A DNA stretch of 64,000 nt from the NCBI GenBank assembly GCA_964517765.1, contig CAZFEN010000001.1:34345-98344 (forward strand). The letters run 5' to 3'. The position numbers and the translations under genes are program-made. This document shows positions 3,537 to 34,369 of the stretch, in pieces. Below the pieces are notes generated by a model. That model had not been told where the DNA came from. It searched no databases and saw only the letters and a list, made by a program, of their open reading frames with translations. The stretch's first letter is position 1; the number at the start of each line of letters is the position of its first letter. Source of the DNA: an uncultured Actinomycetota bacterium. Lineage in GTDB: Bacteria; Actinomycetota; Humimicrobiia; Humimicrobiales; Humimicrobiaceae.

Positions 3537-4214
3537 TTGTTTGATTCATTAATAGAAATAATTGGCTTTTCGGTCTGCCACCAGCTTTCTTCAAGAAGCC
3601 TTATGATTGGTAAAATTGTCCTGCCGGTTTGTGCGAGATGCAGTGGTATTTATATCGGGTTTATCATCACAGCCATTATTTTACTGGTAATGTATAGAAA
3701 AAAAGAAAATGGCCTTCCGCCTCTTTATGTCCTTGTGGTCCTTGCACTTTTTTTCCTGTCTACCCTGATCGATGGTATTGCTTCGAATTTTGGTCTATAT
3801 GAGACAAGCAATAATTTAAGATTCATAACCGGTTTTCTTTGTGGGTCATCCATTATGGTAATCATTTATCCTATCTTTACATTTCAATATTACAAACAGT
3901 CAAAACCGAAAAGAATATTCAATAGTGCGGGCGGATTTATGATTTATATCCTGACAATTACGGTATTTATTGTCATCACTCTTATCAGGTTCGATTTCAT
4001 GGGTCGTTTTTACTACTATTTTATTACATTTTCGATTCTTTTTACTTTTTATTTTATCAATATGGTACTTGTGCTACTGATCCCGCCATTTTCTCAAAAA
4101 GCGCACAGGCTTGCCAGTAAGCACTTGATCTTGCCTTCGGTTATAGCGATTGCCCTTTCGTCAATAGAATTGCTTGGCTCCTACTGGTTTCACAGGTTTA
4201 TTACGAACTTCTGA
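3537..4214 (+). CDS. DUF2085-like integral membrane protein
   Basis: 225 aa; N-terminal CHQ...RS and CARCSGIY cysteine motifs followed by multiple TM helices. Confidence 0.45.
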   Translation: MFDSLIEIIGFSVCHQLSSRSLMIGKIVLPVCARCSGIYIGFIITAIILLVMYRKKENGLPPLYVLVVLALFFLSTLIDGIASNFGLYETSNNLRFITGFLCGSSIMVIIYPIFTFQYYKQSKPKRIFNSAGGFMIYILTITVFIVITLIRFDFMGRFYYYFITFSILFTFYFINMVLVLLIPPFSQKAHRLASKHLILPSVIAIALSSIELLGSYWFHRFITNF

Positions 4215-4241
4215 TCTTCAGGCTTAAACCGGATATCCGGC

Positions 4242-4832
4242 CTAAAACAAATTTATTAATCCGTAATTATGATAGATAAAAAAGGTAGTTATGGTGGAGA
4301 TTCCCACACCGAAGATTACCTGATTGACTGTATGTTCTTTGATTCTTACTCTTGCCCAACCTATTACAGGAATAAGGGGGACCATGAGCAGCATCCATCT
4401 GCCGAATAAAATATTAAAAGTAATGACTATAAAAGTTATCCAGCTGGTATGAAGACTGATTTTCCAGAAATAGGTTATGATAGTCAAAATAACAGTAGAG
4501 ACTACGCTTACTGCAAATATGGATTTTAGGAATAAAGGAGCTCCCAGAGTATATAAAATAAGGTAACCTACTATATGACAGATACTTATTATAATTAGGG
4601 GTTTAATTCTTTCTTTCTTATTTAGAACGTGAAAATCAATTATTGTATTCCTTTTCAATAAAAAAAATATATAAAAATAAGGAATTAAAAAGCTAAACAA
4701 TAAACATATAAAAGCCCAGCTTATGGCACTTCTTATATTATCCACAACTTTAAGACAAACAATAAAGGAAACCGGGATTGAAATGAATGTACCATCAAAA
4801 ATATGTGATAATATTCTTGCAAATTTATTCAT
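4242..4832 (-). CDS. hypothetical multi-TM membrane protein
   Basis: 196-aa ORF, hydrophobic helices throughout, no recognisable motif. Confidence 0.45.
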   Translation of the reverse strand: MNKFARILSHIFDGTFISIPVSFIVCLKVVDNIRSAISWAFICLLFSFLIPYFYIFFLLKRNTIIDFHVLNKKERIKPLIIISICHIVGYLILYTLGAPLFLKSIFAVSVVSTVILTIITYFWKISLHTSWITFIVITFNILFGRWMLLMVPLIPVIGWARVRIKEHTVNQVIFGVGISTITTFFIYHNYGLINLF

Positions 4833-4971
4833 TTTTCTTCAACTTTAAAATTTTCTAATATTAATAATTTTTTATTAAATTTACAATTTAACATAATTAA
4901 TATTTAAACACTTTTAATAATTAGTAATTTTTTAAGTAATGCTAATATAATATTTCTTATTATTACATTTT

Positions 4972-5973
4972 TTACATTATACTTTTTATCCATTCAGGTA
5001 GATATTGTATACCTACCGGTATGATAGATATAATTATAATTCCAATAGTAGTCCTTATAGTTTTAAAGTTCGTAGGCCAAATATTTAAAGAATTGATTCT
5101 TTTTTTATATAGAATCAACTTATCAATCTTTTCAAACTCAATTATATTAATCTCTTCTATATTTTTATCTAAAAAACTGTTATGTTCTTTCTGTATTCGA
5201 TAGTTCATTTCATCCAAAGCTTTTTTCTTTTCTAAAAAAAGTTTCTTCCTAATTGGAATTTCAGGTATTAGAAACATACTTATCATAATGATCGCTGAGA
5301 AAGAACAATAGCCTATTATTAATTTCCCCATAGGTAGAACCTTTGCAAATATTATGCTAGTAATACAAACAGATATATATATGCTTCCTATGATTGCAAC
5401 TTCATATGCAATGTTTCTTAAAAATATTATTGATATATTTTCTCTATACCACAACCCTACTTTCACTAGTCTCCCTAATCTTATAGAATATACAAAATAA
5501 GTTATTAGGGAATATAAAGAAAAACCTGTAATGAAATTTATTGAAAATAAAAATATAGATAACAATATAAGAAGTATTTTATTACCCTCCCAAGAACCTA
5601 ATACTTTAGGAGCAAGTCCAATAAGAGATCCATAAATAACCCCTGAAATGCACATTAATTTTAAATTAAAAATTTCTTTTAAAAATCTATCTGACATATT
5701 TCTTTTTTCTTTTATTTCTTTTCCAATTAATATAAATTTAAAGAACTCAAAAGAATTTTTTAAAACGTATTTGCCAATATTCAAGAGTCCCCATAGCAAA
5801 AATGCATTTGCACAAAACAGGAGTATAATAAACGTTGAATCTTTAATGTTTTTTGTAAAAAACCATTGTAAAAAAATATAAGATAATCCAACAATTATTG
5901 GTGCAATAATTAAAATTAGATGAATAGATTTTCTATCGAAAAAAAAATTATTATAAAAAATTTTATTTTTCAT
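4972..5973 (-). CDS. hypothetical polytopic membrane protein, encoded in an AT-rich islet
   Basis: 333-aa ORF with many TM segments; local GC about 20%. Confidence 0.45.
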   Translation of the reverse strand: MKNKIFYNNFFFDRKSIHLILIIAPIIVGLSYIFLQWFFTKNIKDSTFIILLFCANAFLLWGLLNIGKYVLKNSFEFFKFILIGKEIKEKRNMSDRFLKEIFNLKLMCISGVIYGSLIGLAPKVLGSWEGNKILLILLSIFLFSINFITGFSLYSLITYFVYSIRLGRLVKVGLWYRENISIIFLRNIAYEVAIIGSIYISVCITSIIFAKVLPMGKLIIGYCSFSAIIMISMFLIPEIPIRKKLFLEKKKALDEMNYRIQKEHNSFLDKNIEEINIIEFEKIDKLILYKKRINSLNIWPTNFKTIRTTIGIIIISIIPVGIQYLPEWIKSIM

Positions 5974-6130
5974 AAAATCTCCCTATATTTTTAAGTACAT
6001 ATTATTTATATTAATTTCAATTTTAAATAAACGATAAAGATAATTCTTTATGAGTATTCTTATTTTACTTTCTAATTAGAAACACTATAAAATACATTTA
6101 AATATAGAGGATTCATTTAATTATTATTGT

Positions 6131-7078
6131 TTAACCAATATTTATAAAATCTATCAATATTTTATTAACAACTTGATGTTTTTCTTCAATACTGTCATGT
6201 CCTGCTTCATCTATAATTTCTAAACTGGAATTTTTAATATAATTATTAAATCCATAGGCAGAATCAACATTTATCCATTTATCATTTTTGCCCCAGATTA
6301 TAAGAGTAGGAATATTTATACTTTCTAAAAAAGTTTTGATATTATATCTATTAAGACCATTCATAAAACCTTTTATGATTTTTAAAAAAACTTTATTTGA
6401 ATTTTTTATTCTGAAAGGTGTCAAATAATTAACAATAATATTTTCATTAATGAATGAATTATTATAAATTAACGTTCTTAAAATTTTAATGAAATTAGAT
6501 TTTTTTACAAAGAAGTGATAATACATAACATTTATTATTTGATAATTAACAAAGGTTAGGATAAACCTAAAGCGGTTTCTAAAACCAAATCCATCAATCA
6601 GAACCAGTTTTTCAAACTTATCGGGACATAAGCCATAAGCTAATAACACTATTTCACCGCCCATTGAATGACCGATGGCCACCACTTTACCAATTTTTTT
6701 CTTAGTAATAAAATCTAATAATATTCTGGCTTGTTCTATCAATGTATAATCAGAATTTAGCATCCTTTCAGAATATCCATGGCCCTTCAAATCTAATACA
6801 TATACTTTATGATACTTTGAAAGTTCTTCAATGCCATATCTAAATGTAAATATATTTGCTCCAAGGCCATGAATGAAAATAATACTTTTACCTTTATTGC
6901 CTCTTTCTACATAATGAATATTCACTCCTCTTAATTTTATTAAGCTACCTTCTGTTTTAATTTGATTTAAATCTATATTAATAAACTTATTAACTCTAAA
7001 GACAACATAACGATAATATATAAAAATAATTATTACTATAAAACAAATTGGAAATAAATAATAAAATGTTTCTGTCAT
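6131..7078 (-). CDS. alpha/beta-hydrolase-fold protein (esterase/lipase-like) with N-terminal TM anchor
   Basis: HGLGANIFTF oxyanion region and GHSMGG nucleophile elbow; very AT-rich coding sequence. Confidence 0.65.
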   Translation of the reverse strand: MTETFYYLFPICFIVIIIFIYYRYVVFRVNKFINIDLNQIKTEGSLIKLRGVNIHYVERGNKGKSIIFIHGLGANIFTFRYGIEELSKYHKVYVLDLKGHGYSERMLNSDYTLIEQARILLDFITKKKIGKVVAIGHSMGGEIVLLAYGLCPDKFEKLVLIDGFGFRNRFRFILTFVNYQIINVMYYHFFVKKSNFIKILRTLIYNNSFINENIIVNYLTPFRIKNSNKVFLKIIKGFMNGLNRYNIKTFLESINIPTLIIWGKNDKWINVDSAYGFNNYIKNSSLEIIDEAGHDSIEEKHQVVNKILIDFINIG

Positions 7079-7181
7079 AATTTTTTCTTCTATAAGAATT
7101 TAATATTTTTAAGGTTTTTACTATAAATATTTATTTAAAAAACCGTATATACTTCTCTTGCTAGAATAATCCCTATCAAAT

Positions 7182-7215
7182 AAGAAAGACTCCTTTAACT
7201 AGGAGTCCATTATAT
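7182..7215 (-). terminator. hairpin GACTCCT-ttaact-AGGAGTC followed by a T-rich tract on the minus strand; putative terminator of the GGDEF gene
   Basis: 7-bp perfect stem seen in sequence directly downstream of the minus-strand stop at 7252. Confidence 0.35.
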
Positions 7216-7251
7216 TAAAATGAATCAATTTTTAAAACAAGTTTAAGTATA

Positions 7252-8097
7252 TTATTCCATTACTTTTTCATTGGATTTCTTGGCCAGATAGACTTTCTTA
7301 TCTGCTTCTACCATGAAATTTTTAATACTGCATCCTTCCTTATAATACTCTATACCCATACTCAGGTCTGTATTCTGGCAGTTTAATCCTAAAAACTTTT
7401 CTCTTATTCTGCATGCAATTTCCTGTGCGATTTTTCCCTCTGCCTGGTTTATTATTATTAGAAATTCGTCTCCTCCGAATCGGAAACCCAGATCGACACC
7501 TTCTCTTATGTTTTTACGGATAATGCTCCCCAGGCTTTTAAGCAGTTTATTTCCACTCTCATGACCATTATGGTCATTATATTTTTTAAAATTATCGATA
7601 TCGAACATTATAATTGCTACTTTTTCTTTTTTTCTTCTTCCCCTGCTGATTTCCTCGTTAAGCCTTCTGTCCAGATACCTGATATTATATAATCCGGTCA
7701 AATAATCGAGATATGTAGATCTTACCAGTTTCTTTTGAAGCTTCTTATATGAAGTTATGTCAGTGAGAGTAGTAACCACGTATAAAATATTTCCATCGTC
7801 ATCCCTTACGGGGGAATTACTCGCCAGTGTGTTAACTATGGTTCCATCACTTCTCAAGAATTCTATTTCATAATTTAGCGCCGTTTTGCTATTAACAATT
7901 TTTTTAAACCTTTTTCCTTTATGTTTTGGTGAAAGAATACTTAAATACCTTTTACCTACAAGCATGTTCGGATCATATCCATAATCCCTTATCTTTTCAT
8001 TTACAAAAAGGATATTGTTTTTAATGTCTTTTATTACAAATATTTCATTTGTATTCTGAAGTATTTTTTCTATATAAGGTAAAAACTTCTTTAACAT
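7252..8097 (-). CDS. PAS-GGDEF diguanylate cyclase
   Basis: 281 aa; intact GGDEF (FRFGGDEFLII) and upstream DYLTGLYN motif; N-terminal PAS-like segment. Confidence 0.75.
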   Translation of the reverse strand: MLKKFLPYIEKILQNTNEIFVIKDIKNNILFVNEKIRDYGYDPNMLVGKRYLSILSPKHKGKRFKKIVNSKTALNYEIEFLRSDGTIVNTLASNSPVRDDDGNILYVVTTLTDITSYKKLQKKLVRSTYLDYLTGLYNIRYLDRRLNEEISRGRRKKEKVAIIMFDIDNFKKYNDHNGHESGNKLLKSLGSIIRKNIREGVDLGFRFGGDEFLIIINQAEGKIAQEIACRIREKFLGLNCQNTDLSMGIEYYKEGCSIKNFMVEADKKVYLAKKSNEKVME

Positions 8098-17962: not shown

Positions 17963-18841
17963 TCACAGGACTGATTCTTCTTTTAAAATTTTATCCAGTA
18001 CTAAACCTGCTCCATAGGAAGATCTTATAAATATTCCGCTCTCAACTGCTTTAAAACCAAAACTCATGGCCAATTCTCTTATGCTTTCAAATTCTTCAGG
18101 CTTATAATACTTCTTTACCGGAATATTCGATAGTGAAGGCCTGAGATATTGGCCTATTGTAACTATATCACAGCTTACTCCCTTTAAATCTGCCAGCAAT
18201 TCTCCCACTTCTTCCCTGCTTTCCCCGAGCCCAAGCATAAATCCGGACTTTGTGTAAATATCGGGTTTAAACAGTTTAGAAAATTTTAATATGGCAAGAG
18301 AATTCTCGTAATTTGAGTATTTCCTGGCTAAAGAGAAATTTCTTTTTATTGTCTCTATATTATGAGCCAGTACATCCGGATTTCTCATAAGAACAATCTT
18401 CAAGTTGTCGGTATTTCCTTTAAAATCGGGAATCAGACACTCTATTTTTGAAAAAGGGTTTGATCTCTTTATTTCGCTTATAGTTTTTGCAAAATGATAA
18501 CTTCCGCCATCGGTCAGATCATCTCTGGTCACCGAAGTAATTACGGCATATTTCAATCTCATTTTCTTTACCGCAGATGCTATTCTTGTGGGTTCATATT
18601 CATCAAGGATTTGAGGTTTTCCGGATCTTATCCCGCAAAAACCACAATTACGGGTACAGGTATTCCCCATCAACATGAAAGTCGCGATTTTTTTCCCAAA
18701 ACATTCAAAAATATTTGGGCACCCGGCACTCTGACAGACAGTATTTAAATGCAAATCATAAAGGAGATTTTTGATCTGCTTGATTTTAAAGTTGTTCAGG
18801 TTGACTTTCTTCTTAAGCCAATCCGGCGTGTTACTGGACAA
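17963..18841 (-). CDS. lipA: lipoyl synthase
   Basis: N-terminal auxiliary-cluster cysteines (CQSAGCPNIFEC) plus radical-SAM CTRNCGFC; aligns with E. coli LipA. Confidence 0.9.
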   Translation of the reverse strand: MSSNTPDWLKKKVNLNNFKIKQIKNLLYDLHLNTVCQSAGCPNIFECFGKKIATFMLMGNTCTRNCGFCGIRSGKPQILDEYEPTRIASAVKKMRLKYAVITSVTRDDLTDGGSYHFAKTISEIKRSNPFSKIECLIPDFKGNTDNLKIVLMRNPDVLAHNIETIKRNFSLARKYSNYENSLAILKFSKLFKPDIYTKSGFMLGLGESREEVGELLADLKGVSCDIVTIGQYLRPSLSNIPVKKYYKPEEFESIRELAMSFGFKAVESGIFIRSSYGAGLVLDKILKEESVL

Positions 18842-19697
18842 TTCTACTCACAATTCTTTCGAGATCTCTAATAGAGCCAAATTCTACTACGATTTTTCCC
18901 TTTTTTTTGCTCATTGATATTTTAACAGGAGCATTCAAATGCTCGGATAATTTCTGAGATATTTCGGGAAATTTACTTAACTGTAATACTTTTTTGTCTT
19001 TTTTGCCTTCGACAGTCTCTTTTTTCTTAGTTGCTATTCTTTCTACATCTCTTACGCTGAGATCGTTTTTGGTTATGAGATTTGCAACTTTTATCCTTTC
19101 CTCTTCTCCGTCTATTGCCAGTATCGACCTCGCATGTCCCTCGCTTATCTTTCCTTCGTTTATCAATTTTTGGATTTCGAGGGGGAGCGAGATCAATCTT
19201 AATAAGTTTGTTATTGATACCCTGCTTTTCCCAACTCTTTTTGAAAGTTGGTCATGGGTTATCTTAAATTCATCTATAAGTTGTTTAAACGTATGAGCCT
19301 TTTCCATGGGGCTTAAGTTATCTCTATGAATGTTTTCAATAAGAGCCATTTCAAGGGAAGATATATCATCAATATCTTTAACTATTATAGAAGGAATTGT
19401 ATTAATACCAATTTTTTTAGTGGCTCTGTATCTTCTCTCTCCGGTAACAATTTCATATTTTTCTTCCTCATCCAATCTTCTTACAACTATGGGCTGGATG
19501 ACCCCAAATTCCTTTATTGACTCGGAAAGCTCAGCAAGTGATTCATCGTCAAACCTGCTCCTGGGCTGATTTTTGTTTGGGATAATCTTATCCAATGACA
19601 GTTCAACTATTGTATTTGATTCACCTTCTAAAGATTTGTCTATGCTTGGAATTAAAGCACCAAGTCCCCTGCCTAAACCTCTTCTAGCCATTTTCAA
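18831..19697 (-). CDS. parB: chromosome partitioning protein ParB/Spo0J
   Basis: GLGRGLGALIP N-terminal motif, ParB box, HTH; stop overlaps lipA start by 11 nt. Confidence 0.9.
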   Translation of the reverse strand: MKMARRGLGRGLGALIPSIDKSLEGESNTIVELSLDKIIPNKNQPRSRFDDESLAELSESIKEFGVIQPIVVRRLDEEEKYEIVTGERRYRATKKIGINTIPSIIVKDIDDISSLEMALIENIHRDNLSPMEKAHTFKQLIDEFKITHDQLSKRVGKSRVSITNLLRLISLPLEIQKLINEGKISEGHARSILAIDGEEERIKVANLITKNDLSVRDVERIATKKKETVEGKKDKKVLQLSKFPEISQKLSEHLNAPVKISMSKKKGKIVVEFGSIRDLERIVSRIVQ

Positions 19698-20520
19698 TCA
19701 CTTCCTTTGTAAAATTGTTGTAAGCTTCTGCACCTTTGCAATGAGGATCGTAATCTATTATGGGTTTGCCGTAACTGGGGGCCTCGCTCAGCCTCACGTT
19801 TCTTGGGATAACTGTCTTATATACTTTTTCCGAGAAATAATTTTTGACTTCTTCTATTACCTGTTCTGCAAGTTTTATTCTTGGATCATACATGGTCATT
19901 ATTGCTCCCTTTATTTTCAAGGCATCATTTAGATTTTTTTTAACCAGATTTATTGTATTCAAAAGTTGGCCAAGCCCTTCAAGTGCATAATACTCGCATT
20001 GTATTGGTATAATAACCTCTCTGGCCGCTGTTAAAGCATTAATAGTCAAAAGCCCCAGCGCCGGAGGACAATCGATAAGTATGAAATCGTAGTCTTTTTC
20101 AATCTTGATTATGGCTTCTTTTAATCTAAACTCTCTTTTTAAGCTCGAAACCAGTTCAACTTCTGCTCCGGCAAGCTGTATTGAAGACGGAAGAAGTCTT
20201 AGATTTTTATACGAGGTATCTATAATTATTTCATCCGGCTCACTGTCATGGATCAATATATCATATATCGACTGTTTTACATCCGAGGGATTTACGCCCA
20301 GACCGCTTGTCGAATTGCTTTGCGGATCGAGATCTATAAGTAAAGTTTTGTAGCCATAAGAGCTTAAATATGCAGATACATTTACTGCTGTTGTGCTTTT
20401 ACCAACACCACCTTTTTGATTTGTAAAAGCAATTATTCTGCTCAGCCGTTTTTTATTTACCATTTCGTCCTGTTTTTTATTTTTGATTATCATATCAAAA
20501 AATTTCAATTTATGGATCAC
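19684..20520 (-). CDS. parA: chromosome partitioning ATPase ParA/Soj
   Basis: Deviant Walker A KGGVGKSTTAVNVS. Confidence 0.9.
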   Translation of the reverse strand: MIHKLKFFDMIIKNKKQDEMVNKKRLSRIIAFTNQKGGVGKSTTAVNVSAYLSSYGYKTLLIDLDPQSNSTSGLGVNPSDVKQSIYDILIHDSEPDEIIIDTSYKNLRLLPSSIQLAGAEVELVSSLKREFRLKEAIIKIEKDYDFILIDCPPALGLLTINALTAAREVIIPIQCEYYALEGLGQLLNTINLVKKNLNDALKIKGAIMTMYDPRIKLAEQVIEEVKNYFSEKVYKTVIPRNVRLSEAPSYGKPIIDYDPHCKGAEAYNNFTKEVIENG

Positions 20521-20581: not shown

Positions 20582-21316
20582 TTACTGCAACGGTCCCTTG
20601 ACTATTTTATTGAAAGTTCGTGGGTATATTACCGGAGATTTTAGTACTTTCTTTATTACCAGAAAAGTCCTATATTCATTTAAATAAGGGACCTCTACCT
20701 CTAGCAAATTATCTACCTTTCCCCCCAATTTTGAGATAACTTCCCTGTTGCTATCAAGTTCGGTGAATATTTTTTTACTTTTATAAAATATAATTTTACC
20801 ATTTATTCTACAAAATGGAATTGTTAATTCGCTTAAAATATTTAAACTTGCAACGGCTCTCGACAGAACAATATCGAAAGTTTCTCTATATTGGGCTTCA
20901 TTACCCAGCTCCTCTGCCCTGCCTCTGATAACCCTGACATTTTTTAATCCTAATTCCTCTACGATCATATTTAAGAAATTGATTTTTTTTAATGTTTTAT
21001 CCAGAAGATAAAATATTTTATCCTTTAAAAAAATAGACAAAAGCGCTCCGGGTAGTCCTGCCCCCGTTCCTAAATCCAGTACTTTCCGCGCAGGATCTTC
21101 ATTATTGAATACCATCTTTTCATATTTAAGTATCGAGATAGAATCCAGAATATGCCTTACAAGGATCCCCTTTTTATCCTTAGTACCAATAAGATTGAAT
21201 TTCTGATTATACTCATAAACTAAATTCAGGTATTTTTCCAGGATTCTTACCTGGCTCTGAGAAAAGTCAATACCAAATTCTGCGAGCGATTCTCTTAAAA
21301 TATGGGAAGTATTCAA
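20582..21316 (-). CDS. rsmG: 16S rRNA (guanine527-N7)-methyltransferase RsmG (GidB)
   Basis: SAM motif LDLGTGAGLPG; conserved position downstream of mnmG. Confidence 0.85.
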   Translation of the reverse strand: MNTSHILRESLAEFGIDFSQSQVRILEKYLNLVYEYNQKFNLIGTKDKKGILVRHILDSISILKYEKMVFNNEDPARKVLDLGTGAGLPGALLSIFLKDKIFYLLDKTLKKINFLNMIVEELGLKNVRVIRGRAEELGNEAQYRETFDIVLSRAVASLNILSELTIPFCRINGKIIFYKSKKIFTELDSNREVISKLGGKVDNLLEVEVPYLNEYRTFLVIKKVLKSPVIYPRTFNKIVKGPLQ

Positions 21317-23184
21317 TTCAATACCTTCTTTGATCTACCCTTTAGATTTAACATTATTATTGATATATCCGCTGGTGATACTCCTGCAATCCTTGAAGCC
21401 TGACCAAGAGTATTTGGCTTGATTTTTGTTAATTTCTCCTGCGCTTCGTAAGTCAAACCTATTATTTTAAAATAGTCCAGATCCGGTAAAAGATAATATC
21501 TTTCCAGATTCCCTAATTTTTTAATTTCTGCCAGCTGCCGGTTTATATAACCTTCGTATTTTGTTCTTATTTCTGCCTGCTCAAGCACCCCCTTCTCATA
21601 GCTGCTTTTTTTACCGATAAAATAGTCCACTACATCATGAATGCTAACTTCTGGTCTTTTTAAAAGTTTATAAATATTAAAAGGGGTATCAATGGATCTG
21701 GTTCCGATCTTTTCAAGTATTTTATTATTCTTTTTATCCGGATTCAAAATAATATTTTTTAATTTTGACACCAGTTTATTTGTTTTCTCTTCCTTTCTTC
21801 TTACTTTCTCATACTGGCCATCTGTTATTAGACCAGCGCTGTTACCAAATCCACACAATCGTATATCGGCATTATCGGACCGTAATATCAGCCTGTATTC
21901 CGCCCTGGAAGTATACATCCTGTAAGGTTCTATAAGATCTTTAGTAAGAAGATCATCGATTAAAACTCCTATATAGCTGGTATCTCTGGTCAGTATCATT
22001 TGTGATCTGCCCAGTACCTTGAGTGCCGCATTTATTCCGGCAACAAGACCCTGGGCTGCTGCCTCTTCATACCCTGAAGTGCCATTTATCTGGCCCGCAA
22101 AATATAAATTTTCTATATTTTTCGATTCCAGAGTAAAATTCAGTTGACTTGGAATTATATAATCATACTCTACCGCATAACCGGGCCTTATTATTCTGGC
22201 ATTTTCCAATCCTTCAACAGTATTTACTATTTTCTGCTGTATTTCTGCGGGCATACTTGTAGTAAGCCCCTGAAGATACATTTCACCGCTGTGTGCACCT
22301 TCTGGTTCAATAAAAACAGGGTGCCTTTTTTTCCCGGGGAAATTTATGACTTTTCTATCTATAGAAGGGCAGTGCCTTGGTCCATGGGTATCAACCATCC
22401 CGGATCTTATAGGGGATTTCTCTATATTTTCGGTGATAATTTTATGGGTTTTCTTATTTGTATAAGTAATATAACAATCAATGTTTTCGTATATCTTTTC
22501 TTCATCCCAGAATGAAAAGCTTAAAGGTTCCCTGTCTCCGCATTGAACAATTGTTTTAGAGAAATCCACTGTTCTTTTATCGATCCTCGGAGGAGTAGCC
22601 GTTTGAAATCTGCCTATATTAAAATTAAGGTCAATTAAGTTTTTGGTTAAATTCATTGCGGGATATTCCCCCATCCGTCCGGCTTGATAATCTTTTTCCC
22701 CTATTATGATTCTTCCTCTCAAAAAAGTACCGGCGGTAATTACCACTGCTTTCCCCTTAAAAATTAAACCGCTTTCTGTTTCAACTCCAAATGCCTTATT
22801 ATTTTTAACAAATATCTTATTTATTGTCCCCTGTCTCAAAGTTAAATTCTGAGTGTTTTCAAGGATTCTCTTCATCTCGATTTCGTATTTTTTCTTATCT
22901 ATCTGAGCCCTTAGAGCCTGGACTGCCGGACCCTTGCTTCTGTTCAGGACCTTTATCTGTATTAAAGTATTGTCGGCTGTCTTTGCCATCTGTCCGCCAA
23001 GTGCGTCCAGTTCCCTGACCAGCTGACTCTTTCCTAATCCTCCTATTGATGGATTGCAGGGCATTAAAGCAATTTTATCAACATTAATCGTTAGCAGTAT
23101 AGTCTTTAAGCCTAATCTTGCAGATGCCAGTGCCGCTTCGCAACCCGCATGCCCGGCACCTACGACTATTATGTCATACTTCAT
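21313..23184 (-). CDS. mnmG: tRNA uridine 5-carboxymethylaminomethyl modification enzyme MnmG (GidA), full length
   Basis: 623 aa; FAD motif VVGAGHAGCEAA; conserved MPCNPSIGG and GPRHCPSID cysteine motifs; C-terminal helical domain present. Confidence 0.9.
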   Translation of the reverse strand: MKYDIIVVGAGHAGCEAALASARLGLKTILLTINVDKIALMPCNPSIGGLGKSQLVRELDALGGQMAKTADNTLIQIKVLNRSKGPAVQALRAQIDKKKYEIEMKRILENTQNLTLRQGTINKIFVKNNKAFGVETESGLIFKGKAVVITAGTFLRGRIIIGEKDYQAGRMGEYPAMNLTKNLIDLNFNIGRFQTATPPRIDKRTVDFSKTIVQCGDREPLSFSFWDEEKIYENIDCYITYTNKKTHKIITENIEKSPIRSGMVDTHGPRHCPSIDRKVINFPGKKRHPVFIEPEGAHSGEMYLQGLTTSMPAEIQQKIVNTVEGLENARIIRPGYAVEYDYIIPSQLNFTLESKNIENLYFAGQINGTSGYEEAAAQGLVAGINAALKVLGRSQMILTRDTSYIGVLIDDLLTKDLIEPYRMYTSRAEYRLILRSDNADIRLCGFGNSAGLITDGQYEKVRRKEEKTNKLVSKLKNIILNPDKKNNKILEKIGTRSIDTPFNIYKLLKRPEVSIHDVVDYFIGKKSSYEKGVLEQAEIRTKYEGYINRQLAEIKKLGNLERYYLLPDLDYFKIIGLTYEAQEKLTKIKPNTLGQASRIAGVSPADISIIMLNLKGRSKKVLN

Positions 23185-23217
23185 TTCTTCTACTCGATAT
23201 GTCCATTAAATAATTAT

Positions 23218-23235
23218 ATGTTTCACGTGAAACAT
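23218..23235. promoter_or_regulatory. perfect 18-bp palindrome ATGTTTCACGTGAAACAT, 34 nt upstream of the mnmG start, overlapping a TATAAT -10-like hexamer (mRNA sense)
   Basis: Read directly; the same 16-bp core recurs at 24678-24693. Confidence 0.5.
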
Positions 23236-23237
23236 TG

Positions 23238-24659
23238 TTATCTATTCATTATATTTCGCATGATTTTTTCTGCTCTTTCATCAGAGCCCATACTTAATAA
23301 AATCTTTATCATTTTATTAACATCACTGGAATCATCATTTAAAAAAACCTTATCGTTTATTGTTAATATTACACTGCGCGACCTTTTTGATTCCTTTTCT
23401 ATCAGAATACTGATTAGCTGTCCTATATATCCATCTTCCTTATTTATAACAATACTGGTAAGGTTTTTCGCTTCTCTGGAAGCATTTATCCCTGCAATTA
23501 GTCCCTGTGCTGCTGACTCTTCGTAACCGGTGGTTCCATTCACCTGACCGGCGAAAAAAACTCTATTAAGTGTTTTACTTTCCAGATTACTTTTTAATTG
23601 ATAAGGGAGTAAACAGTAATACTCTATTCCATAACCGGGCCTGGTTATTTCCACGCCCTCAAAATTTTTTATTTTTCTTAACATTTCAACCTGTAACTCT
23701 TCCGATACTGCAGTTTCAAGACCATTTAGATATGCCTCTTTTGTATCTCTCCCCAATGGTTTTATTGAAACTTCTTGGCCCTCGATATCTTCTTTTTTTA
23801 ATAATTTAGCTTCTATTGAAAGGACATCTTCCGATATATCCAGGTAATTACCGCTTCTATTATTTTTAATATTGGTCGAATGCCCCCGTAAATATCTGGA
23901 AAAATCTTTATTTATATAAGTCGTATAATAATAAATTTGCTCTCTATTTTTAAAATTACTTTCATATGAAAATGTCCATTGTTTCCTGCTATATGGCTGC
24001 CTTTTCAGACTATTTAAATCAATTGATTTTTTATCCACTATGGGAGCTGCATAATTCTTTAACTTTCCAAACCTGAAACCAAGGTTTTCTAAACCATTTA
24101 ACAGCCTTTTGGAGCATATTTCGCCCTGTCTCCCTGCTTCAATCATATAATCCCCCCAGAAAATTCTTGCTTTAAGGAAAGTACCGGTGCATATAATGAT
24201 CGATCTGCAGAAGTACGTAATTCCATCACTTGTGTATAAGAGATATCCACTACTGTCTTCTTTTACATTTACCGCGAGTCCCTGCCGTAAATCTAAATTA
24301 CTTTGTTTCTCAAGTACCTCTTTCATTGAAAGAGAATATCTTCTTCTGTCAACTATTGCCTGAAGGGCCGCATTGGTCCTATTTTTCGTATTTTTGATTT
24401 CTTTAAGATGAATATAGTTTTTATCTATATTCCTTGAGATTTCTCCACCCAGTAGATCTATTTCTCTTAACAGTTGACTCTTTCCGATACCTCCTACGGT
24501 ACTGCCATATGGCATAATAGCTATACTATCCATATTTATTGATACAAGTAGAGTTTTAGAACCATTCCTTGCAGAACTCAGAGCTGCCTCACAACCCGCA
24601 TGTCCGGCACCTATTACTACCACATCATATATATTTTCTTTTATTGTTTTTATTCCCAT
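23238..24659 (-). CDS. truncated MnmG/GidA-like paralog lacking both conserved cysteines and the C-terminal MnmE-interaction domain
   Basis: 473 aa; FAD motif VIGAGHAGCEAA retained. MPCNPSIGG replaced by MPYGSTVGG, no GPRxCPS motif, ends about 100 aa after AGQVNGTTGYEESAAQGLIAG. Confidence 0.8.
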   Translation of the reverse strand: MGIKTIKENIYDVVVIGAGHAGCEAALSSARNGSKTLLVSINMDSIAIMPYGSTVGGIGKSQLLREIDLLGGEISRNIDKNYIHLKEIKNTKNRTNAALQAIVDRRRYSLSMKEVLEKQSNLDLRQGLAVNVKEDSSGYLLYTSDGITYFCRSIIICTGTFLKARIFWGDYMIEAGRQGEICSKRLLNGLENLGFRFGKLKNYAAPIVDKKSIDLNSLKRQPYSRKQWTFSYESNFKNREQIYYYTTYINKDFSRYLRGHSTNIKNNRSGNYLDISEDVLSIEAKLLKKEDIEGQEVSIKPLGRDTKEAYLNGLETAVSEELQVEMLRKIKNFEGVEITRPGYGIEYYCLLPYQLKSNLESKTLNRVFFAGQVNGTTGYEESAAQGLIAGINASREAKNLTSIVINKEDGYIGQLISILIEKESKRSRSVILTINDKVFLNDDSSDVNKMIKILLSMGSDERAEKIMRNIMNR

Positions 24660-24677: not shown

Positions 24678-24693
24678 TGTTTCACGTGAAACA
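24678..24693. promoter_or_regulatory. second copy of the palindrome core TGTTTCACGTGAAACA, upstream of the mnmG-like paralog
   Basis: Read directly; 34 nt upstream of the paralog start, followed by a TATAAA hexamer in mRNA sense. Confidence 0.5.
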
Positions 24694-24732: not shown

Positions 24733-26121
24733 TTATTTACCTATGCAGAATTGACTGAATATTTCTTCCAGAATATCCTCTCTCACAGTTTCTCCTATTA
24801 TCTCTCCCAGTAGTTCAAATGCGGTCTTTAAATCATAAGAAGGAAACTCTTCGGACATCTTATCATTTACTGCTTCCTCTGCTCTATTCAAAGATTTTTT
24901 TACCTCTTCCAATATCTTTTTATGTCTGCTATTAATAATGATTTTCTCCTCCAGATCGATATCCCCACCACCCAATATAATAGATTTTATTTTATTTTCT
25001 AATTCCTTAATTCCCTTTCCTTTTAATGCAGAAATTTTTATAACATATTTCTCATCAAAATACTTCTTAATCTTTAATACTTCCAACTTTTGTTTTAAAT
25101 CTATTTTATTAATACAACAAATAATACTTTTCCCTTTTATTTTATTTATTATTTGTAAATCCATTTGTTCTAACTTCCTGTTTCCGTCCAAGACCAGTAA
25201 AATCAATTCAGCTTCGTTTATATGTTTTAAACTTCTATCTACTCCTATTTTTTCTATGGCGCTTCTTGTTTTTCTTATCCCTGCTGTATCGACCAGAATA
25301 AGCGGTATCCCTTCGACATACAAGATTTCTTCTACTGCATCTCTCGTCGTTCCGGGAATTGGAGTCACTATTGCCTTTTCTTTCCTGGATAGCAAATTTA
25401 ACAAACTGGATTTCCCCACATTTGGTTTTCCGATAATTGCTATTTTGACACCATTTTTTATAATTTCCCCCTTTTTCTCGTTTATTATCAATTCTTCAAG
25501 TTCTGCCCTTATTTTTTTTACTTCTCTGGCAATTTCCCGATATGGCGTTACTTCCAGGTCTTCTTCAATAAAGTCTACCGGGGCTTCCAGCTGTACACGT
25601 ATATCCAGAAGATTTCTTCTCAGTCTCTTTATCTCTTCTTTTATATTGCCCCGTAAATTCTTAGCAGCAAGCCTCAGGCTCTGTTCCGTTCGGGATCTTA
25701 CCAGATCTATAACTGCTTCTGCCTGTGATAGATCTATTCTTCCATTCAGAAAAGCTCTTTTTGTAAATTCTCCCGGATCCGCTATTCTTGCACCATTTTC
25801 AATACATAATTCCATTGTTTTAGTAGTAGCAATTATTCCCCCGTGACAGTTTATCTCTACAACATCTTCCCGTGTATATGAACCAGGTTTTTTCATTACT
25901 GTAATAATTACTTCATCAATGAAATGGCCACTATTATCAATAATATGTCCGTAAAGCATACTATACGTACCAATATCTTTTATCTTCTTTTTATTTTTTG
26001 ATTTAAATATCTTATCAGCTATAGAAATCGACCTATCACCGCTTAATTTGACTATACCAATCGCTGCTTCACCGGCTCTGGTTCCCACTGCTACTATTGT
26101 ATCGTTTATTTCCGCCTTCAT
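24733..26121 (-). CDS. mnmE: tRNA modification GTPase MnmE (TrmE)
   Basis: 462 aa; G1 GKPNVGKSSLLN, G-domain motifs, C-terminal CIGK. Confidence 0.9.
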   Translation of the reverse strand: MKAEINDTIVAVGTRAGEAAIGIVKLSGDRSISIADKIFKSKNKKKIKDIGTYSMLYGHIIDNSGHFIDEVIITVMKKPGSYTREDVVEINCHGGIIATTKTMELCIENGARIADPGEFTKRAFLNGRIDLSQAEAVIDLVRSRTEQSLRLAAKNLRGNIKEEIKRLRRNLLDIRVQLEAPVDFIEEDLEVTPYREIAREVKKIRAELEELIINEKKGEIIKNGVKIAIIGKPNVGKSSLLNLLSRKEKAIVTPIPGTTRDAVEEILYVEGIPLILVDTAGIRKTRSAIEKIGVDRSLKHINEAELILLVLDGNRKLEQMDLQIINKIKGKSIICCINKIDLKQKLEVLKIKKYFDEKYVIKISALKGKGIKELENKIKSIILGGGDIDLEEKIIINSRHKKILEEVKKSLNRAEEAVNDKMSEEFPSYDLKTAFELLGEIIGETVREDILEEIFSQFCIGK

Positions 26122-26202
26122 TTTTACATTTATCTCCTATGGTGCTTTTGAAATTTCTGATTCTTATTATATTTAATATTTATATTTATTCAAAAATAAA
26201 AC

Positions 26203-26241
26203 CAATAAAAAAATGGCACACCCCGGTGCCATTTTTTTTTA
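26203..26241. terminator. A-run / TGGCAC-ACCCCG-GTGCCA hairpin / T-run: bidirectional intrinsic terminator between jag and mnmE
   Basis: Classic stem-loop flanked by A7 and T9 read from sequence. Confidence 0.6.
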
Positions 26242-27979: not shown

Positions 27980-28321
27980 TTACAGTTGGCCGATAAGAAA
28001 TGAAATCAAAATATTTTCCAGTATCTTTTTTATTTCCAATAAGCTTGCAGTAACAATGATCGGTTTAGCCACAATCAAAATATCTAAATTATTGTAACTT
28101 TCTATTTCAACTTTTCTTAAAGCTTCTCTTAACACTCTTTTAATTCTATTTCTTAGAACGGCTCCGCCTATTTTTTTACTTACTCCTAATCCGATTCTTA
28201 CAGATCCACAAATTTCTTCTTTTTTGAATATATATAAAGTTAAATATTTATCCCTTTTACATAAACCTTCTTTTATTACTCTTGAAAAATCACTTTTTCT
28301 TTTAAGTGTTTCAAACTTGAT
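27980..28321 (-). CDS. rnpA: ribonuclease P protein component RnpA; no canonical start codon in frame (probable AUC start)
   Basis: Translation (I)KFETLKRKSDFSRVIKEG...GLGVSKKIGGAVLRNRIKRVLREAL aligns with B. subtilis RnpA. The frame contains no Met and follows directly after the rpmH TAA in the same frame. Confidence 0.65.
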   Translation of the reverse strand: MKFETLKRKSDFSRVIKEGLCKRDKYLTLYIFKKEEICGSVRIGLGVSKKIGGAVLRNRIKRVLREALRKVEIESYNNLDILIVAKPIIVTASLLEIKKILENILISFLIGQL

Positions 28322-28862: not shown

Positions 28863-28956
28863 CCTTAAGCTTCTGAAAAGAAAATGAAAAGCAATATCGT
28901 TGATTGATATGTTTTCTGTTAAATAAAACAATTCGCATTTAAAGTTGACATTAATA

Positions 28957-29811
28957 ATGCCTGACGAAAATACTAAACCAAATAATGCTGACGATTCCAA
29001 CAAAATCTATGGAAACATTGAAAAAATACCGGTCAGAATCGCAGTCTATGATAATATGCGGAGCATTCCAAGGATAGTGAATCTCAGCTATGATAATATT
29101 GCGGACTTCATTAATGAAACCACCCAAAAAACCTATAGTCTATCCCATGAGATTGGCGGGAGAATTCCTTATACAATAATAAAAGAGATAATAGAGAATC
29201 TTATACACGCAGATTTCAAAGAAGTTGTGATTACTGTGTTGGAAAGGGGAGACCATATAATCATAACGGACCAGGGACCGGGAATCGAAGACAAAGAAAA
29301 AGCTTTCCTACCGGGATATACTTCCGCTACGAGTAAAATGAAAGAATACATCAGGGGAGTGGGTTCGGGTTTTCCGATAGTAAAAGAAACTATAACTTTT
29401 TCCGGAGGATCTATCGATGTAAAAGACAATATAAAAAGGGGGACGGTAATATCTTTAAAACTTGGACAGCCGGAAAAGAGTGATAGCGTAAAGGATACGG
29501 AAATCAAGACAACCGGTGAGACGATACCTGTTATTCCCGACGAGGATAAAAAAACTCCGGCAGATGGCATAGACAAATTTGATCATAAAGTATTATCCGA
29601 CAGACAAAAGAAGATCCTTTTTGTGATCCTGGAACTGGAAGAAGCCGGGCCTTCTACAATAGCCAGTGAGCTGGGTTTTAGTCTCTCTACTTCATACCGG
29701 GAATTAATCTACCTGGAAAAGAACAAAATGCTTGCCTCCGGCAGCAACGGCAAGAGAAAATTATCTAAAAAAGGCTTAAAATACCTTGAATATTATTCAA
29801 ATACTATTTAA
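28957..29811 (+). CDS. GHKL/histidine-kinase-like ATPase domain fused to a C-terminal winged-helix DNA-binding domain; function unknown
   Basis: N-box EIIENLIHA, G1 DQGPGI, G2 GVGSGF; C-terminal KILFVILELEEAGPSTIASELGFSLSTSYRELIYLEKNKML. No SD; start at ATG 28957 (TTG 28945 and ATG 29056 are alternatives). Confidence 0.6.
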   Translation: MPDENTKPNNADDSNKIYGNIEKIPVRIAVYDNMRSIPRIVNLSYDNIADFINETTQKTYSLSHEIGGRIPYTIIKEIIENLIHADFKEVVITVLERGDHIIITDQGPGIEDKEKAFLPGYTSATSKMKEYIRGVGSGFPIVKETITFSGGSIDVKDNIKRGTVISLKLGQPEKSDSVKDTEIKTTGETIPVIPDEDKKTPADGIDKFDHKVLSDRQKKILFVILELEEAGPSTIASELGFSLSTSYRELIYLEKNKMLASGSNGKRKLSKKGLKYLEYYSNTI

Positions 29812-33568: not shown

Positions 33569-34369
33569 ATGTTGAAAAAAATAACAACAAAAGATCTTGT
33601 TGAAATGAAAAAGAAGGGCGAAAAAATAACAATGCTTACCGCATATGATTGTCTGATGGCATCGCAGCTGGACGAGTGCGGCATAGACTTGATACTGGTG
33701 GGAGATTCTGTGGGAAATGTTCTTCTGGGATATAAAAATACCATACCGGTTTCGATGGATGAAATGATCCATCACTGTAAAGCAGTCTGCCGCGGTGTGG
33801 AAAGGGCAATGGTGATAGGAGATATGCCATTTATGTCTTATCAGGCAAGTGTTGCCGGGGCGGTAAGGAATGCCGGAAGATTTTTAAAAGAAGCCGGAGC
33901 AGAAGCAGTAAAACTGGAAGGCGGGAAAGAAATCCTTTTGACCATAAATAAAATCGTCGATTCAGGGATTCCGGTAATGGGACATCTGGGATTTACTCCG
34001 CAATCTGTTTATAAGTTCGGCGGTTATGGCGTCAGAGGAAAAGACGAAGAGCAGGCTAAAAAGATGATAGAAGATGCCAGTGCGCTTGAGGAAGCCGGAG
34101 TATTTTCGATAGTGTTGGAGAAGATTCCAGCAGAGCTTGCAAAAAAGATAACACGAAAGATCAGCGTTCCCACGATAGGAATAGGAGCAGGGGTAAACTG
34201 CGACGGACAGGTGCTCGTAACACATGATATGCTTGGATGTTTTGAAAAATTTAAACCAAAATTTTCAAAAAGGTATGCTGAATTGGGAATAGAAATGAAG
34301 AAATGCTACACGAAATATATAGAAGAAGTAAAAAATAAGAAATTTCCCTCAGACGAACATTCCTATTAG
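33569..34369 (+). CDS. panB: 3-methyl-2-oxobutanoate hydroxymethyltransferase (ketopantoate hydroxymethyltransferase)
   Basis: 266 aa; TAYD and LVGDSVG motifs. Confidence 0.9.
   Translation: MLKKITTKDLVEMKKKGEKITMLTAYDCLMASQLDECGIDLILVGDSVGNVLLGYKNTIPVSMDEMIHHCKAVCRGVERAMVIGDMPFMSYQASVAGAVRNAGRFLKEAGAEAVKLEGGKEILLTINKIVDSGIPVMGHLGFTPQSVYKFGGYGVRGKDEEQAKKMIEDASALEEAGVFSIVLEKIPAELAKKITRKISVPTIGIGAGVNCDGQVLVTHDMLGCFEKFKPKFSKRYAELGIEMKKCYTKYIEEVKNKKFPSDEHSY

Follow-up and report, generated by a model that had tools for sequence, protein, structure and literature searches.

MnmEG is a universally important machine for the modification of wobble uridines; the equivalent in humans, GTPBP3/MTO1, is a disease locus. 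MnmG (GidA; TIGR00136; PDB 3CP8, 2ZXH, 3CES and 9HIP) is the flavin adenine dinucleotide (FAD)/reduced nicotinamide adenine dinucleotide (NADH) subunit of this synthase, which forms 5-carboxymethylaminomethyluridine (cmnm5U) at position 34 of tRNA (cmnm5U34). In Escherichia coli both catalytic cysteines of MnmG are needed in vivo and in vitro, and the C47A and C277A proteins make no cmnm5U, yet NADH still reduces their FAD (PMC10723064). Deletion of residues 550-629 severely affects the binding of MnmE (PMC4027165), and in the cryo-electron microscopy (cryo-EM) structure MnmG contacts MnmE via residues 82-92, 290-296 and 427-431 (PMC12397908). The MnmG homodimer binds a single tRNA and shows negative cooperativity, and in the alpha2beta2 complex one subunit only binds MnmE and FAD (PMC4027165, PMC12397908); the authors of the cryo-EM structure consider that one MnmG subunit may serve MnmE and the other the tRNA (PMC12397908). 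The stretch of 64,000 nucleotides analysed here (the window; positions 34,345 to 98,344 of contig CAZFEN010000001.1, assembly GCA_964517765.1, an uncultured Actinomycetota bacterium) carries two GidA-family genes in tandem downstream of mnmE, namely G2, encoding a truncated, cysteine-less MnmG paralog of 473 amino acids (aa), followed by G1, encoding a canonical MnmG of 623 aa. Analysis of their sequences, relatives and neighbourhoods indicates that G2 is most likely a non-catalytic partner of a working enzyme and not a dead gene.

The tandem arrangement had been proposed from the DNA letters alone, and both open reading frames (ORFs) were found on the minus strand at the positions given for them (Table 1). 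The two products share 38% identity across 418 aa (E=9e-99). The longer copy proved canonical, as proposed, with 826 bits on TIGR00136 (cut-off 525), the domains GIDA, GIDA_C_1st and SAM_GIDA_C, and the cysteine motifs MPCNPSIGG and GPRHCPSID. The sole Pfam match of G2 is PF01134 GIDA (349 bits, E=4e-104), and with 363 bits it stays under the TIGR00136 cut-off. Its first cysteine motif reads MPYGSTVGG and the region of the second reads ISEDVLSIEAK, with no GPxxCPS, which bears out the loss of both cysteine motifs described in the original prediction. In an alignment anchored on the E. coli protein, the Cys47 column is occupied by Tyr51 and the Cys277 column by Val279, while the five cysteines of G2 correspond to E. 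coli positions 19, 148, 154, 179 and 347, none of them catalytic. Catalytic cysteines that are merely shifted in the window protein are ruled out, as none of the five lies in a catalytic column.

The proposed retention of the FAD-binding part was likewise supported, both by the FAD motifs and by an MnmG-like fold: the AlphaFold2 model of G2, built on 41 family members, has a mean predicted local distance difference test (pLDDT) score of 83 and a predicted template modelling (pTM) score of 0.88, and superimposes on solved MnmG/GidA structures with template modelling (TM) scores of 0.85-0.88. We infer from these features that G2 binds FAD. The MnmE-docking domains of the C-terminus (PF21680 and PF13932; E. 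coli 550-629) have no Pfam match in G2, and its alignment to E. coli MnmG stops near residue 485. The claim that the C-terminal helical domain is missing held for the distal part of this domain and failed for its beginning, as a remnant of ~50 aa, in which a disordered linker (424-442) precedes a helical hairpin (443-472), aligns with the opening helices of that domain in MnmG.

Two other shortened flavoproteins of this superfamily were compared with G2. TrmFO (Gid), the folate/FAD-dependent methyltransferase that forms 5-methyluridine at position 54 of tRNA (m5U54), is of similar length (~440 aa), belongs to the same superfamily and has no MnmE-binding domain. TrmFO depends on conserved catalytic cysteines (PMC5954106), whereas G2 has none at either MnmG catalytic position. 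Moreover, G2 reaches only 78 bits on NF003739 (cut-off 262) and 60 bits on TIGR00137 (cut-off 429), its model superimposes on TrmFO with a TM score of 0.43, and the two are similar in sequence over residues 311-425 only. TrmFO identity was rejected on these profile scores and this TM score, as the original prediction had held from motifs. The second, Thermus thermophilus TTHA1897 (PDB 2CUL), is also a shortened GidA-family flavoprotein with its role unassigned, but this 232-aa protein gives only a weak local match to G2 (E=6e-8 over ~60 residues; query-normalised TM score, TMq, 0.40) and represents a separate family.

The residues kept and lost were surveyed by aligning 41 members of the G2 family to E. 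coli MnmG, with the functionally tested positions taken from Table S3 of Maes et al. (PMC12397908). The dinucleotide-binding motif GxGxxG at the N-terminus and other glycines that contact FAD are present throughout the family, and G13/G15, G52/G53, G67/G68, G156/T157, Y308 and Y377 vary little or not at all (at least 95% conserved for the glycine/FAD positions). The Cys47 column contains Phe or Tyr in 38 members (26 and 12, respectively), Asn in one and Ser in one, and Asn48 is replaced by Gly in 37 of the 41. In the Cys277 column, within MnmG-specific motif 1 (GPRYCPSIEDK), Cys is found in just six members, and the segment is deleted in four. Further replacements characteristic of the family affect Arg96 (Gln/Lys), Thr199 (Asn/Lys), Gly200 (Tyr) and Pro202 (Ala); Arg275 and the tRNA-binding Arg427, Arg432 and Arg436 are lost, and the three MnmE-contact patches, well conserved in all other groups, have no consensus. 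Mean pairwise identity among the short G2 proteins (G2-short) is 0.65 in the FAD domain, versus 0.63-0.75 among genuine MnmGs, and 0.49 versus 0.77-0.85 in insertion domain 1, 0.46 versus 0.66-0.77 in insertion domain 2, 0.32 versus 0.82-0.99 in motif 1, and 0.30 versus 0.71-0.87 at the start of the helical domain (398-440).

G2 thus resembles MnmG in its FAD motifs, in its neighbourhood beside mnmE and rsmG and in its clear descent from an MnmG paralog, but it lacks Cys47, Cys277, Asn48, Arg96, Thr199, Pro202, the MnmE-contact patches and the distal helical domain, its motif 1 is degenerate, and it falls below the family cut-off. Because of these losses and the published C47A/C277A and 550-629 deletion results, it is very improbable that G2 works as an MnmG enzyme or docks MnmE by the known route, in agreement with the earlier statement that it cannot be an ordinary MnmG. 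Could G2 nevertheless still modify uridine, through substitute residues such as Cys182 or by a cysteine-independent mechanism? Cys182 is specific to the family and present in 33 of the 41 members, and Bommisetti et al. (PMC10723064) discuss activation of the uridine base via N1 in place of attack by a cysteine. This possibility is nonetheless decidedly improbable, given that E. coli needs both cysteines in vivo as well as in vitro (PMC10723064), that almost every other active-site residue with a functional test behind it is replaced, and that G2 lacks a surface for MnmE docking through which the methylene group could be taken up.

The G2 family extends well beyond the window. A protein search returned ~40 clusters (90% identity) of 394-484 aa, in which MP[F/Y]G stands where MnmG has MPCN and the second cysteine motif is missing; they range from 85% down to ~41% identity to the window protein. 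The intact relatives come from independent assemblies and carry source labels of the type 'FAD-dependent oxidoreductase [Actinomycetota bacterium]', one member being assigned to Candidatus Hydromicrobium of the class Candidatus Humimicrobiia. Tandem pairs in related genomes and the ratio of nonsynonymous to synonymous substitution rates (dN/dS), both suggested as checks with the original prediction, were analysed. All seven looked-up members lie in one and the same slot, flanked by mnmE and a canonical mnmG of 609-632 aa, and in these seven loci dnaA and a HATPase_c gene stand on one strand and rpmH-rnpA-yidD-yidC-jag-mnmE-G2-mnmG-rsmG-parA-parB-radical-SAM on the other. Overall, the paralog adjoins canonical mnmG in 10 of 10 distinct Actinomycetota-type loci (L001-L011 and L095, duplicates L003 and L005 counted once). 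No second GIDA gene was found within 4 kb of mnmG in any of 80 loci from unrelated genomes; these control loci came from a contig scan with the family alignment, whose motifs are common to every MnmG, and the matches listed were all canonical MnmG (best 41% identity). In one of the related loci (L001, 7479-9349) the canonical mnmG is called as two ORFs of 505 and 104 aa, owing to a frameshift/stop or an assembly error; the short G2 beside it is intact.

Purifying selection acts on G2. Its whole-gene dN/dS, calculated by the Nei-Gojobori method for the window together with three relatives, each gene being represented by three or four sequences, lies between 0.14 and 0.24 in six pairwise comparisons; the corresponding values are 0.11-0.12 for G1, 0.09-0.10 for mnmE and 0.14-0.18 for rsmG. 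Within G2, the ratio is ~0.2 for the core, rising to ~0.4 in the variable part of insertion domain 2. These values bear directly on the reading of G2 as a duplicate in decay, an incipient pseudogene, or a mere spacer between the two parS-like sites that flank it (Table 1). Such a reading would accommodate the missing catalytic residues and C-terminus as well as a dN/dS about twice that of G1, but it is scarcely credible in view of an ORF that is intact across ~40 clusters with divergence down to ~45% identity, dN/dS values far below 1, invariant FAD-domain motifs and a confidently folded model. The frameshifts or relaxed selection that would mark a decaying gene were not encountered among the relatives of G2, and the pseudogene reading was rejected on the intact ORFs of these clusters and the low dN/dS.

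A second group of matches (G2-long) places G2 in an evolutionary series. These proteins, of 587-627 aa, are 45-52% identical to G2, above the 38% found between G2 and G1; they keep both cysteines (MPCNSAVGGPGRG and GPKYCPSIEDK) and the SAM_GIDA_C domain, and in both examined loci (L006 and L007) they occupy the exact slot of G2, with canonical mnmG next. Like G2-short, the G2-long proteins of related Actinomycetota (e.g. P0051 and P0058, annotated as MnmG) carry the derived signatures WG and EAGRQGEI, which canonical MnmGs are without, and their genes are accompanied by the same two parS sites. Unlike G2-short, they retain, besides both cysteines, the tested catalytic and tRNA-binding residues except for a few (G200 to E/D, R515 to Q, K589 to S), and G2-long may be an active enzyme. 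In neighbour-joining trees, which are distance-based and were built without support values, canonical MnmG including all G1 copies is followed by G2-long and then by a single G2-short clade. When 1.84 billion cluster representatives were searched with a profile, a sharp gap separated G2-short and G2-long, at 555-720 bits, from canonical MnmGs, at 441 bits or below. Intermediates were also found: P0137 (459 aa, same slot) has the first cysteine only, and P0011, P0013-P0016 and P0022 have a cysteine in the second column only. Because a cysteine-bearing paralog of ~600 aa holds the same slot in related Actinomycetota metagenome-assembled genomes, shares these signatures and groups with G2-short in the trees, the tandem pair is read as older than the short form, and G2-short as the derived state of a full-length, cysteine-bearing paralog. 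An ancient duplication, full-length paralogs with cysteines in relatives, and parS sites on either side of the gene were not part of the original prediction.

The same profile search returned further truncated cysteine-less proteins (P0147/P0284, P0199 and P0183) that are nearer to canonical or other long MnmGs than to the G2 family. P0147 (466 aa, MPFNPSIGG, from a contig of 32% GC) is ~35% identical to the window protein and has one close relative, after which its best matches are Bacillota-type MnmGs (44-47% identity), whereas P0199 (492 aa, contig of 55% GC) and P0183 resemble other long Actinomycetota paralogs. On both looked-up contigs, those of P0147 and P0199, the truncated gene has mnmE on one side and a canonical mnmG on the other. 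From these patterns of identity, a similar cysteine-less truncation appears to have arisen more than once, in at least two unrelated lineages.

Of the three roles offered by the original prediction, those resting on a flavin fare best: conservation of the FAD core at the level of genuine MnmGs fits either a pseudoenzyme partner that binds flavin or a flavoprotein with a new role, whereas a tRNA-binding factor, or an MnmE-binding one, is argued against by the decay of the tRNA arginines and the MnmE-contact patches. We tentatively favour, at somewhat less than even confidence, the explanation that G2 is a flavin-binding pseudoenzyme scaffold pairing with G1 as an asymmetric heterodimer. G2 would have degenerated to a state in which it no longer makes cmnm5U by itself and no longer docks MnmE, selection would keep it as a flavin-binding scaffold, and it would replace the second G1 subunit in the MnmG dimer, leaving G1 as the catalytic, MnmE-binding and tRNA-binding subunit and G2 as the structural one. 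Since G2 has been kept so long, and in several lineages, after losing both its chemistry and its MnmE dock, its role probably needs neither, and the MnmG dimer's second subunit is the simplest such role. MnmG reportedly dimerises through its FAD-binding and insertion domains, as Meyer et al. are said to have described in 2008 in J Mol Biol, and G2 retains both. Three features expected of a pseudoenzyme partner, namely loss of catalytic residues, purifying selection and a canonical mnmG adjacent in every locus examined, were observed. Heterodimers of a catalytic subunit and an inactive paralog are known in tRNA modification, as in QTRT1/QTRT2 and ADAT2/ADAT3. The proposed mode of G2 follows these pairs in that a paralog of a dimeric enzyme loses its catalytic residues yet is retained; it differs from them in that folds and chemistry are unrelated, and in that those complexes were shown experimentally, while physical pairing of G1 and G2 is a proposal. 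That mnmE-G2-G1 encodes a naturally asymmetric MnmG heterodimer reached several times independently, by degradation of a duplicated mnmG, is a broader proposal, and is put forward with correspondingly more reserve.

Several observations weigh against the heterodimer. The pocket replacements F/Y51, G52, Y203 and A205 are conserved and family-specific, so the pocket is not random; together with Cys182 (replaced by Asn in five members and by Ser in three) they could form a new catalytic site; and selection on G2 is about twice as relaxed as on G1. These replacements, like the strongly conserved FAD-binding core, speak for a free-standing flavoprotein with a new activity, either an NADH:FAD reductase feeding MnmEG or another redox reaction in the remodelled pocket. 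The C47A/C277A mutants of E. coli, which still reduce FAD with NADH (PMC10723064), and the weak FAD binding of E. coli MnmG, which loses its FAD in size-exclusion chromatography (PMC12397908), are also in line with such a role. However, the C47A/C277A double mutant is poor at retaining flavin (PMC10723064), family members have a degenerate or deleted motif 1, the proposed site for NADH, Cys182 is not invariant, and a new stand-alone function would account neither for the strict adjacency to mnmG nor for the recurrence of similar decay in other lineages, which makes a free-standing flavoprotein a serious but rather unlikely alternative.

A regulatory role was also weighed, in which G2 would tune wobble modification as a poison subunit drawing G1 into half-active dimers, or by sequestering tRNA. 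The likely operon with mnmE and mnmG, the retention of the domains thought to mediate dimerisation, a core net charge averaging +11 versus +5 in G1, and the K283 and R286 columns, basic in ~70% of members, could all be accommodated by a decoy of this kind. Constitutive co-transcription with its own target would, on the other hand, be an odd design, and the tRNA-binding Arg427, Arg432 and Arg436 are gone along with the entire distal helical domain; the poison subunit, moreover, overlaps in mechanism with the heterodimer model, from which sequence cannot separate it. We regard the regulator as improbable, and the pairing of G2 with G1 in an asymmetric heterodimer remains the explanation to which we give preference.

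Table 1. Coordinates of features in the window, and of two comparable loci on other contigs (last row)
Feature	Position	Strand or place	Basis or remark
parB	18831-19697	-	ORF; orthologues match Pfam ParB
parA	19684-20520	-	ORF; orthologues match Pfam ParA
rsmG (gidB)	20582..21316	-	4-nt overlap with G1 stop; orthologues match Pfam GidB
G1 (canonical MnmG, 623 aa)	21313..23184	-	both cysteines, both C-terminal domains
Second parS-like palindrome TGTTTCACGTGAAACA	23219..23234	4 nt past G2 stop, ahead of G1	exact match
G2 (GidA-family ORF, 473 aa; truncated, cysteine-less MnmG paralog)	23238..24659	-	ORF, Pfam, alignment, model
parS-like perfect 16-bp palindrome TGTTTCACGTGAAACA	24678..24693	mnmE-G2 spacer	exact match
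mnmE (462 aa, ends in canonical FCIGK motif)	24733..26121	-	ORF/translation; orthologues in L001-L011 with Pfam TrmE_N/MnmE_helical/MMR_HSR1
Promoter-like site ahead of mnmE	26166-26193		consensus scan
Terminator-like hairpin, 13-bp stem, T-runs either side	26207-26238	between jag and mnmE	consensus scan
jag	26845-26261	-	ORF list
yidC	27729-26872	-	ORF list
rnpA	27983-28321	-	
HATPase_c gene (288 aa)	28945-29811	+	
dnaA	from 29824	+	
Truncated cysteine-less MnmG-like loci	L093 5001-7740; L094 1098-2860		contigs 32% and 55% GC, no parS sites

The pair belongs to a minus-strand series ordered rpmH, rnpA, yidD, yidC, jag, mnmE, G2, G1, rsmG, parA, parB and a radical-SAM gene (lipA-like), with dnaA on the opposite strand and the cumulative GC skew minimum at ~30-32 kb; this is the replication-origin region. 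The hairpin between jag and mnmE resembles a bidirectional intrinsic terminator and would part yidC-jag from mnmE-G2-G1. Because this hairpin after jag is followed by a promoter-like site before mnmE, a single mnmE-G2-G1 transcription unit is weakly suggested, with mnmE likely its first gene, and we infer co-transcription of the three genes from this layout. In the same consensus scan, promoter-like sites in the window showed no enrichment over shuffled sequence, and Rfam and tRNA scans detected no RNA genes in the window.

Both palindromes that flank G2 are exact copies of TGTTTCACGTGAAACA, of which the 64-kb window contains two versus 0.01 expected, and they match TGTTNCACGTGAAACA, which we take to be the ParB-binding parS consensus. 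With parA and parB ~3 kb away, and with dnaA and the GC skew minimum at ~30 kb, the two palindromes are likely parS sites and ParA/ParB their readers. The site in the mnmE-G2 spacer is exact in 11 of 11 loci (L001-L011) and occurs as a one-mismatch variant in L095, and the site past G2 is present in 11 of the 12 Actinomycetota-type loci (10 of L001-L011, being absent in L008, and L095); in loci with a long G2, this second site falls inside the 3' end of the coding sequence. The motif is found near mnmG/parAB in many unrelated genomes. The presence of a putative parS site ahead of each mnmG copy would fit a tandem duplication of a [parS + mnmG] unit.

Three further observations were made in the window. 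Directly upstream of dnaA, on the same strand, lies the HATPase_c gene, an unusual neighbour of dnaA that is kept at the same position in every related locus reaching that far, and whose product has a possible DNA-binding region in its C-terminal part. The rnpA gene is intact, its product being 86% identical to that of L011; its conserved N-terminus starts at an Ile codon with no in-frame ATG, GTG or TTG, so that it seems to use a non-canonical start, and the program-made ORF list holds just its last 51 codons. Finally, positions 4001-8000 have a G+C content of 27%, versus 33-41% elsewhere in the window, and contain several minus-strand ORFs of 196-333 aa; this low-G+C stretch may be acquired DNA.

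Full-text literature searches for MnmG/GidA paralogs brought up nothing beyond TrmFO, names of alleles and unrelated texts, and no description of a G2-type paralog was found in them. The G2 family can be regarded as an MnmG-derived, probably non-catalytic subfamily, which corrects the annotation of public records that call G2-type proteins 'FAD-dependent oxidoreductase' or 'MnmG'. The presence of MnmE and two MnmG-family genes in some deep-branching Actinomycetota contrasts with a COG survey in which MnmG was recorded in 0 of 74 Actinobacteria genomes (PMC5954106). The series from a full-length paralog through one-cysteine intermediates to a cysteine-less truncated form illustrates how a pseudoenzyme subunit can arise. 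The mechanism of MnmEG is itself unsettled as to why a homodimer takes a single tRNA and why, as alpha2beta2, it takes just one MnmE and one FAD, and G2, conserved without catalysis or MnmE docking, is a natural experiment on this asymmetry. If the heterodimer is real, it would amount to evolutionary proof that one active site, one MnmE dock and one tRNA site per MnmG dimer suffice, would settle the half-of-sites question that small-angle X-ray scattering and cryo-EM have raised, and would yield a simplified complex whose structure could be studied with tRNA.

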